Below, piece after piece: positions 21,936-22,376 of a stretch of DNA of 64,000 nt. Numbering within the stretch: the first letter of the stretch is position 1; each line of letters opens with the position of its first letter. This stretch comes from Escherichia phage KM01, in sequence record PV018827; one strand, written 5' to 3'. The notes under the pieces are model-generated. The model saw nothing but the letters and a program-made list of their open reading frames with translations. It had not been told where the DNA came from and searched no databases. Position numbers and translations under genes: made by a program.

Positions 21936-22376
21936 TTATAAACAGATATAGACAGGTATGTCCATCTGATTTAGATATTTAAACATTATAGGTCTTACCT
22001 GAGATTGGTAATCTAGTCCCCCATTGCCGCAACCAAGAGGTGTTATGGCTAGAGAGGTGATTCCCTTATCTTTGTAGGTAAGTAATAGCTTTTGTAAACC
22101 TTGTTCTATCCACTCTATCTCAGACCCACTTCTCCAATGTTTCTTGGTTGGAAAACACAGCCCTAATCTCCCATCATTTAACCTCTGTAGGAGAAGCTGT
22201 CCAATCTGGAATCCAGAGTTGCAAGCAACTTTATATCTCTCAAAAGCTTCAGGGTATCTTCTTTTATACTCCTTAGCCACTCCTGCACCCATTACACCAA
22301 CTAGGTTCACTGTACAGGTTACTGTTTGGACGTCCACCGTGAATACATTGGCTTTTCCTTCAAAAACAATAGCCAT
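21936..22376 (-). CDS. macro-domain (ADP-ribose binding/processing) protein
   Basis: Track frame 21936-22457; likely start MAIVFEG at 22376 (TAATG overlap with upstream stop); motifs [15 protein letters not shown] and [18 protein letters not shown] resemble the NAAN...GGGV and AFPAISTGVYGYP elements of macro domains. Confidence 0.5.

Follow-up and report, generated by a model that had tools for sequence, protein, structure and literature searches.

The closest characterised homologue of the gene considered here is gp104 of PhiKZ, a DarG2-like macrodomain named AdfM (anti-DarT factor macro) in a 2026 study (PMC13309987). AdfM strips the ADP-ribose (ADPr) attached by DarT2 from thymidine in single-stranded DNA, rescuing cells from DarT2, and is needed by both PhiKZ and PhiPA3 for plating on DarTG2 hosts; the survey in that study was of chimalliviruses only (PMC13309987). 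DarTG2 also restricts Escherichia coli phages such as T5 and SECphi18 (PMC11825919), and the macrodomain of Thermus aquaticus DarG (TaqDarG) is by itself a sufficient antitoxin (PMC5179494). A macrodomain gene of this type is described here from Escherichia phage KM01, in a 64,000 nucleotide stretch (sequence record PV018827) that is referred to below as the window. Sequence profiles and a predicted structure place its 146 aa product in the DarG/TARG1 class of macrodomains, specifically as a DarG and not as a generic macrodomain. From the same evidence the protein is very probably an active DarG-class hydrolase. The likelihood that its biological role is to counter DarTG2 by AdfM-type de-ADP-ribosylation of DNA, judged from sequence and from analogy, is put at roughly 0.7.

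The initial annotation had recognised a macro-domain protein from two motifs, and the open reading frame (ORF) is intact and includes both of them (Table 1). A longer, 173 aa version starting from a GTG at 22457 in the mechanical ORF list was rejected. The ATG at 22376 was preferred because it shares bases with the stop codon of the o-spanin ORF before it (TAATG), because close homologues are all 146-147 aa, and because the annotated genes of phages SU10 and Bas90 have the same length. The predicted protein is basic (pI ~9.0). In SU10 the gene is CDS33, labelled "Appr-1-p processing enzyme family protein", and the labels in other records are "phosphatase", "macro domain-containing protein" and "hypothetical protein". 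The gene has thus been annotated as macro/Appr-1-p since 2014, and the functional class was shown in 2026 for its homologues in jumbo phages.

The general Pfam model Macro (PF01661) matches residues 22-125 with a score of 42.3 bits (E = 8.3e-11; gathering score 22). Models specific to DarG score far above it. The PADLOC DarG profile is matched at 3e-45 over profile positions 6-142 of 329, and NCBIfam antitoxin_DarG (NF048014) at 4.2e-42, with the next family at only 0.009. The top match in a sequence search of the Protein Data Bank (PDB) was the Mycobacterium tuberculosis DarG macrodomain (5M3I, 4e-28), followed by the Thermosipho DarTG fusion (7OMU, 2e-25) and T. aquaticus DarG (5M31/5M3E, 6e-25), and human TARG1 was far weaker (0.03). 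An AlphaFold2 model, for which an alignment of 41 homologues was the input, has a predicted local distance difference test score (pLDDT) of 95.4 and a predicted template modelling score (pTM) of 0.89. The model and the Foldseek comparison predict a three-layer alpha/beta/alpha macro fold with a mixed six-stranded sheet. The best Foldseek match in the PDB is ADP-ribose-bound TaqDarG (5m3e), with a template modelling (TM) score of 0.91 and a root mean square deviation of 1.6 A. The four best matches are all DarG, with TARG1 next and other macrodomains behind, and the first 50 PDB matches listed are all macrodomains or designs on one, at probability 1.00. Structure prediction and alignment of the Gly-rich loop had been proposed as checks in the initial annotation, and both support it, as the AlphaFold model shows the macro fold and both loops align with those of bona fide macrodomains (T. 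aquaticus and M. tuberculosis DarG).

Set against the DarG2 proteins of T. aquaticus, M. tuberculosis and Thermosipho (5M31/5M3E, 5M3I and 7OMU), the window protein shows TM scores of 0.87-0.91 and 35-39% identity, and every residue known to matter for hydrolysis of thymidine-linked ADPr is kept, with the exception of K29. In the HMMER alignment, N24 corresponds to TaqDarG N22, T77 and K78 to T79 and K80, H80 and W81 to H82 and W83, and G115, G117, N118 and G119 to G117, G119, N120 and G121; the TaqDarG residues that contact ADPr are given in PMC5179494. The TaqDarG K80A mutation abolished activity and rescue from DarT was lost, and N22A, the next most damaging mutation, impaired the enzyme (PMC5179494). 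Similarly, N23A reduced the activity of AdfM (PMC13309987). TaqDarG W83, the equivalent of W81, is proposed to stack on thymine. K78, N24, W81, G115 and G119 are invariant across the 41 homologues, as are the loop 1 residues N24, G27, V28, M29, G30, G32 and A34. TARG1 (OARD1) and Streptomyces SCO6735 also belong to the ALC1-like subclass and both can remove thymidine-linked ADPr, and the catalytic Lys is common to TARG1 and the window protein. However, these two share only 16-20% identity with the window protein. TARG1 has a Lys/Asp dyad and acts on protein substrates as well, and in SCO6735 the catalytic Lys is replaced by Gln (PMC9411070).

The window protein differs from a complete DarG2 antitoxin in length and in setting. 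It ends at residue 146, whereas DarG2 proteins are ~340-400 aa. The match to NCBIfam antitoxin_DarG is confined to profile positions 6-144 of 338 and, at 144.6 bits, falls below the equivalog cutoff of 250 bits; the C-terminal DarT-binding domain is therefore missing. The gene comes from a virulent phage and not from a bacterial toxin-antitoxin locus, and no darT (DUF4433) gene adjoins it, the flanking genes being those for the o-spanin and a sigma factor. A tblastn search of the whole window with a DarT gave a best E value of 6. A phage-borne toxin-antitoxin pair, or a partner ADP-ribosyltransferase (ART) encoded by the phage, was considered and rejected, as there is no DarT-like sequence in the window and the annotation of Bas90, a macro-positive relative, includes no ART. 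On its sequence, the protein is an orphan antitoxin-like phage enzyme that lacks two features defining a DarG2 antitoxin. Of the bacterial standalone homologues examined, the closest (P0046, on a 3.7 Mb contig) also lacks a DarT neighbour, so orphan DarG-like macrodomains exist in bacteria too, and this homologue does not help to assign the substrate.

Alignment with PhiKZ AdfM, translated from the gp104 sequence in PMC13309987, gave 41% identity over approximately the full length (residues 1-138; E = 2e-35 in a single pairwise BLASTP). Both are phage-encoded standalone DarG2-like macrodomains of ~150 aa with no DarT partner, and both have the VGVMGAG variant of loop 1, the catalytic Asn (N24, equivalent to PhiKZ N23) and the Lys of the PTK motif. 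Each is found in part of its phage group only. AdfM differs in a ~9-residue insertion before loop 2 and in a C-terminal tail, neither of which is present in the window protein. The phages differ also, as KM01 belongs with the 77 kb podoviruses of Kuravirus (Gordonclarkvirinae), where no phage nucleus is known. The kuraviruses are related to phiEco32 and are podoviruses of the prolate C3 type. The AdfM proteins of chimalliviruses are imported into the phage nucleus (PMC13309987). With no phage nucleus, this import and the "synergy with the shell" of AdfM do not apply to the window protein, and import was treated as not defining for the enzymatic AdfM family.

On a small Klebsiella plasmid, a DUF4433 (DarT) gene is directly followed by the gene for a macro protein that is 44.5% identical to the window protein and shares the GAG variant of loop 1. 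Because similarity to this bacterial DarT-linked DarG2 is about equal to the similarity to AdfM, the sequences suggest a separate capture, with the gene acquired independently of AdfM. A parallel is provided by AdfN, a phage NADAR protein directed against DarTG1, which is likewise an orphan antitoxin enzymatic domain that erases the DNA modification made by the toxin (PMC11825919). However, AdfN has an unrelated NADAR fold, is specific for the guanosine-linked ADPr of DarT1 and does not counter DarTG2 (PMC11825919).

If the role is the one proposed, DarT2 released from a host DarTG2 system on infection would ADP-ribosylate thymidines in single-stranded phage DNA and block replication. The phage enzyme, made with the middle-class (replication) genes, would bind ADP-ribose in the cleft between loop 1 and the PLGCGNGG loop, and Lys78, aided by Asn24 and Trp81, would cleave the ribose-thymine bond, restoring the DNA and allowing replication to proceed. 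The specificity for thymidine in DNA, the anti-DarTG2 function and the timing of expression are extrapolated here from the homologues. As it has no DarT-binding C-terminal domain, the enzyme would act on the product and not on the toxin, and therefore should work against any thymidine-modifying DarT2 variant. Removal of ADP-ribose marks placed by host defence systems, one of the roles put forward in the initial annotation, is accordingly the best-supported reading on sequence and analogy, and is narrowed by the DarG class and the homology to AdfM.

The distribution of the gene is that of an accessory element. Approximately 40 of the ~100 Gordonclarkvirinae records that match the surrounding region encode the macro protein. 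A three-way alignment defines a 463 bp cassette comprising the macro ORF and a 3' tail, which supplies the sigma-factor gene with a ribosome binding site (RBS), AAGGAAAG, and an additional ATG. The cassette is bounded by a 5 bp direct repeat, ATGGC (22376-22372 and 21913-21909). It is absent from Kuravirus 172-1 as a clean indel with flanks ~95% identical (the spans in the two records are 1627 and 1164 bp, a difference of 463 bp). In 172-1 the TAA of the o-spanin gene overlaps the ATG of the sigma-factor gene directly, TAATGGCGAAG, and in the window the 463 bp are inserted exactly there. Four states of this slot between the o-spanin and sigma-factor genes were found, containing the macro gene, a DUF4326 gene, an ORF of 74 aa, or nothing. 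The DUF4326 gene of the Suseptimaviruses EK010 and E20-1 is misannotated as "NrdA-like", and the domain is predicted to process ADPr breakdown products; the EK010 cassette has the same 3' junction, AAGGAAAGATGATGGCGAAG, as the macro cassette. The 74 aa protein of ECBP2 and SU7 has no Pfam match.

A copy of the macro gene that is 80% identical was found in phage DE15 (Chaseviridae), an unrelated myovirus, where it adjoins the SSB gene and is ~3 kb from an antirestriction gene. On sequence comparison, this copy indicates that the gene has been transferred between families of E. coli phages. Values of dN/dS, the ratio of nonsynonymous (dN) to synonymous substitution rates, are 0.03-0.045 among the Kuravirus alleles, which amounts to strong purifying selection, and between the macro gene and the DE15 copy dN is 0.18 and the synonymous sites are saturated. 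Patchy spread, transfer between families and purifying selection are together what would be expected of a counter-defence gene that pays on some hosts only. A recent origin of the macro gene from the host was rejected, as blastn against 5,426 complete E. coli genomes gave no match.

Several observations weigh against an anti-DarTG2 role. The one TaqDarG residue of importance that is not retained is K29, which is Ala31 in the window protein and whose mutation K29E impairs TaqDarG, although Ala is also present at this position in the active PhiKZ AdfM and in the DarT-linked Klebsiella DarG. About 60% of the related phages do without the gene, which is not needed on most hosts. No paper was found that joins Kuravirus with DarTG or "macro domain"; the BASEL study of the kuraviruses Bas86-93 makes no mention of DarT, a macrodomain or ADP-ribosylation, and the gene is not discussed in the text of the SU10 genome paper (PMC4281155). 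DNA of the Klebsiella plasmid darTG had no match in the 5,426 E. coli genomes, which shows only that this variant is absent and is uninformative on the frequency of DarTG2, since the DNA sequences of DarTG2 variants are divergent. The ALC1-like macrodomains TARG1 and SCO6735 act on proteins too (PMC9411070), and the window protein therefore may not be specific for DNA. Finally, in one view from comparative genomics the substrates of phage macrodomains are more likely to be soluble derivatives of ADPr (PMC9503650).

Table 1. Features of the macrodomain locus and of the corresponding slot in related phages. Positions are those of the window unless another phage is named.
Feature	Position	Strand	Remarks
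Macrodomain ORF, 146 aa + stop	21936..22376	-	ATG at 22376, stop codon 21936-21938; from ORF list and sequence
ADP-ribose-binding loop 1, residues 23-37	22266..22310	-	Includes VGVMGAG (26-32)
N24 codon (loop 1)	22305-22307	-	Equivalent to TaqDarG N22 and PhiKZ AdfM N23
FPTKKHWR motif, residues 75-82	22131..22154	-	Contains K78 and W81
K78 codon	22143-22145	-	Catalytic Lys, equivalent to TaqDarG K80 and TARG1 K84
ADP-ribose-binding loop 2, residues 106-123	22008..22061	-	Includes LGCGNGG (114-120)
Accessory cassette, 463 bp	21914..22376	-	Macro ORF and 3' tail; three-way alignment
Sigma-70-type promoter-like site, TGGACA-18 nt-TATAAT	21935..21964	-	11/12 matches; consensus scan
Sigma-factor gene, phiEco32 gp36 homologue	21269..21916	-	Immediately 3' of macro gene
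SLOG-family gene, YspA/cpYpsA-related	20882..21272 (100 aa ORF 20970..21272)	-	PF10686 (formerly DUF2493), 6e-7, above cutoff
o-spanin ORF, lipobox LSAC	22376..22675	-	o-spanin in related records; stop overlaps macro ATG
HNH_3 + AP2 homing endonuclease, 152 aa	22590..23048	-	Between i-spanin and o-spanin
i-spanin	23072..23440	-	
248 aa gene	23474..24220	-	
TAATGTATA, phage-sigma (gp36) middle/late promoter motif	24280..24288	-	Intergenic gap
TAATGTATA, all copies	13558, 24280, 24352, 31004, 63505		
DUF4326 protein, 112 aa	EK010 (L005) 2145-2483		1.9e-17; slot in Suseptimavirus EK010 and E20-1
74 aa ORF	ECBP2 (L009) 970-1194; SU7 (L010) 970-1194		In slot
Macro gene copy, 80% identical	Chaseviridae phage DE15 (L003) 5001-5441		Early small-ORF region

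Around the macro gene, identity to the SU10-like Escherichia phages (genus Kuravirus) is 97-99%. Along the minus strand, the genes encode in order a 248 aa protein, i-spanin, HNH-AP2 homing endonuclease, o-spanin, macro protein and sigma factor, continuing with a SLOG-family protein, a dNMP kinase and a 5'-3' exonuclease. The initial annotation had located the macro gene downstream of the sigma-factor gene, which is true only in plus-strand coordinates. Both genes are on the minus strand, where the macro gene, having the higher coordinates, is transcribed first; it is immediately upstream (5') of the sigma-factor gene, with a gap of 19 bp. The sigma-factor gene itself has a weak match to Pfam Sigma70_r2 (0.002) and is annotated in SU10 as an extracytoplasmic function (ECF) sigma factor, and the identity of the SU10 gene to phiEco32 gp36 is stated in PMC4281155. 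Further upstream, the homing endonuclease gene runs at its 3' end into the beginning of the o-spanin ORF, where the lipobox is encoded. Most Kuravirus records lack the homing endonuclease gene, and two Suseptimaviruses, EK010 (459 bp, the same size) and SU7 (387 bp), have HNH genes in this place.

The gene on the 3' side of the sigma-factor gene, annotated as "GTP-binding" in relatives, belongs to the SLOG family. In the window it has a 2 bp deletion between 21032 and 21031 (GGGG--TATG, compared with GGGGAGTATG in SU10 and GGTGATTATG in 172-1), which splits a 130 aa gene into ORFs of 100 and 45 aa, and it is either a pseudogene or affected by a sequencing error. This neighbour bears on the possibility that the macrodomain degrades soluble ADPr derivatives that arise from host immunity or RNA repair, such as ADPr-1''-phosphate, O-acyl-ADPr or cyclic and variant ADPr signals, perhaps jointly with the SLOG protein. 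The presence of the SLOG gene so close by, and of a DUF4326 gene in the slot in EK010 and E20-1, fits with the finding of Iyer et al. that Macro, SLOG and DUF4326 domains co-occur or are fused in DNA viruses, from which soluble substrates were argued (PMC9503650), and the same thinking underlies the legacy labels "Appr-1-p processing enzyme" and "phosphatase". However, SLOG is a core gene that is present in macro-less phages too, so that the two genes are uncoupled, and it is frameshifted in the window where the macro gene is intact; an obligate macro-SLOG coupling was rejected for the same reasons. The protein is also of the DarG class, unlike the Poa1p, MacroD and YmdB classes that handle ADPr-1''-phosphate (Appr1p) and O-acetyl-ADP-ribose (OAADPr), and its closest characterised homologue works on DNA (PMC13309987). 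A soluble substrate is thus unlikely. DNA de-ADP-ribosylation is better supported than the processing of ADP-ribose-derived signals, the other role suggested in the initial annotation, although such processing is possible.

A motif recognised by the phage sigma factor (gp36), TAATGTATA, occurs in the window in five exact copies, compared with 0.61 expected. The copy at 24280 is upstream of a transcription unit that includes the 248 aa gene, the spanin genes, the macro gene and the sigma-factor gene. This copy, on the minus strand, and that at 24352, on the plus strand, face in opposite directions within one intergenic gap. In SU10, a middle promoter with the gp36 motif tAATGTATAtA is found between CDS37 and CDS38, and CDS25-68 form the middle class with the replication genes (PMC4281155); the macro gene, as CDS33, falls within this class. 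At 23435..23452 on the minus strand, directly after the 248 aa gene, there is a strong terminator-like hairpin with a stem of 7 pairs (5 GC) and a T run behind it. From this arrangement, the 248 aa gene, which follows the middle promoter, may be expressed far above the spanin, macro and sigma-factor genes behind the hairpin.

A further signal is the TGGACA-18 nt-TATAAT site, which is in the final 30 bp of the macro ORF, faces the sigma-factor gene and belongs to the cassette. No site between 18000 and 27000 scored better, but there are no more sites overall than in shuffled sequences, so the scan alone is weak. The SU10 sigma-factor gene (CDS32) has its own sigma-70 promoter with consensus hexamers and 18 nt spacing (PMC4281155), to which the site found in the scan corresponds. 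The site is missing from the macro-less phages, where the start of the sigma-factor gene overlaps the stop of the o-spanin gene, and the sequences suggest that sigma-factor expression may differ between cassette-positive and cassette-negative phages. It is conceivable, though rather unlikely, that the cassette is one allele of an ADP-ribose counter-defence hotspot flanking the sigma-factor gene, and that it also advances or boosts sigma-factor expression.

The position of the macro gene, which abuts the sigma-factor gene and carries a promoter for it in its 3' end, could also be taken to favour reversal of protein or RNA ADP-ribosylation in place of DNA. The targets could then be the products of host ARTs, of which the mRNA-modifying CmdT is an example, or ADPr marks on RNA polymerase or other transcription factors. 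TARG1 and SCO6735, of the same ALC1-like class, hydrolyse protein-linked as well as thymidine-linked ADPr (PMC9411070), and an RNA-targeting ART defence, CmdTAC, is known in E. coli (PMC11618068). Nevertheless, the adjacency to the sigma-factor gene results from insertion into a variable slot that is empty or holds unrelated cassettes elsewhere, and is not a conserved pairing. Unlike SCO6735, DarG has no hydrolytic activity on proteins, and it is without the Asp of the TARG1 Lys/Asp dyad (PMC9411070). The sequence and predicted fold are much nearer to DarG than to TARG1, and no phage ART is annotated (Bas90). Protein or RNA substrates are for these reasons also improbable. That the protein binds DarT or another ART, or reads ADP-ribose, without catalysis, in the manner of ICP1 AdfB, is highly improbable, for although full-length DarG (PMC5179494) and even SCO6735 (PMC9411070) inhibit DarT by interaction and AdfB is a proposed direct binder (PMC11481870), the DarT-binding C-terminal domain is missing (144.6 bits against the cutoff of 250), the TaqDarG macrodomain K80A mutant failed to inhibit DarT (PMC5179494), and all of the catalytic residues are kept under strong purifying selection.

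Assignment of the window protein to the DarG class corrects the misleading labels "phosphatase", "Appr-1-p processing enzyme" and "hypothetical protein". If the role in DNA de-ADP-ribosylation proposed above is correct, AdfM-type counter-defence, so far demonstrated only for jumbo phages that form a nucleus and infect Pseudomonas or Erwinia, would extend to podoviruses of E. coli and, via the 80% identical copy, to the Chaseviridae. The variable slot makes DUF4326 and the 74 aa ORF candidate anti-defence genes and, if the cassettes are interchangeable, the DUF4326 and 74 aa proteins would be new anti-DarT/anti-ADPr factors. Were the cassette to act on the sigma-factor gene as well, its promoter and fresh RBS would link counter-defence to the switch from early to middle transcription. 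The BASEL kuraviruses provide a natural experiment, as near-isogenic phages with the cassette (Bas90 and Bas91) and without it (Bas92, Bas93 and others) are available, all on an E. coli K-12 host for which DarTG2 plasmids exist. Kuraviruses are used in phage-therapy work, and whether a phage has the cassette could be a predictor of its host range on clinical E. coli that carry DarTG2.

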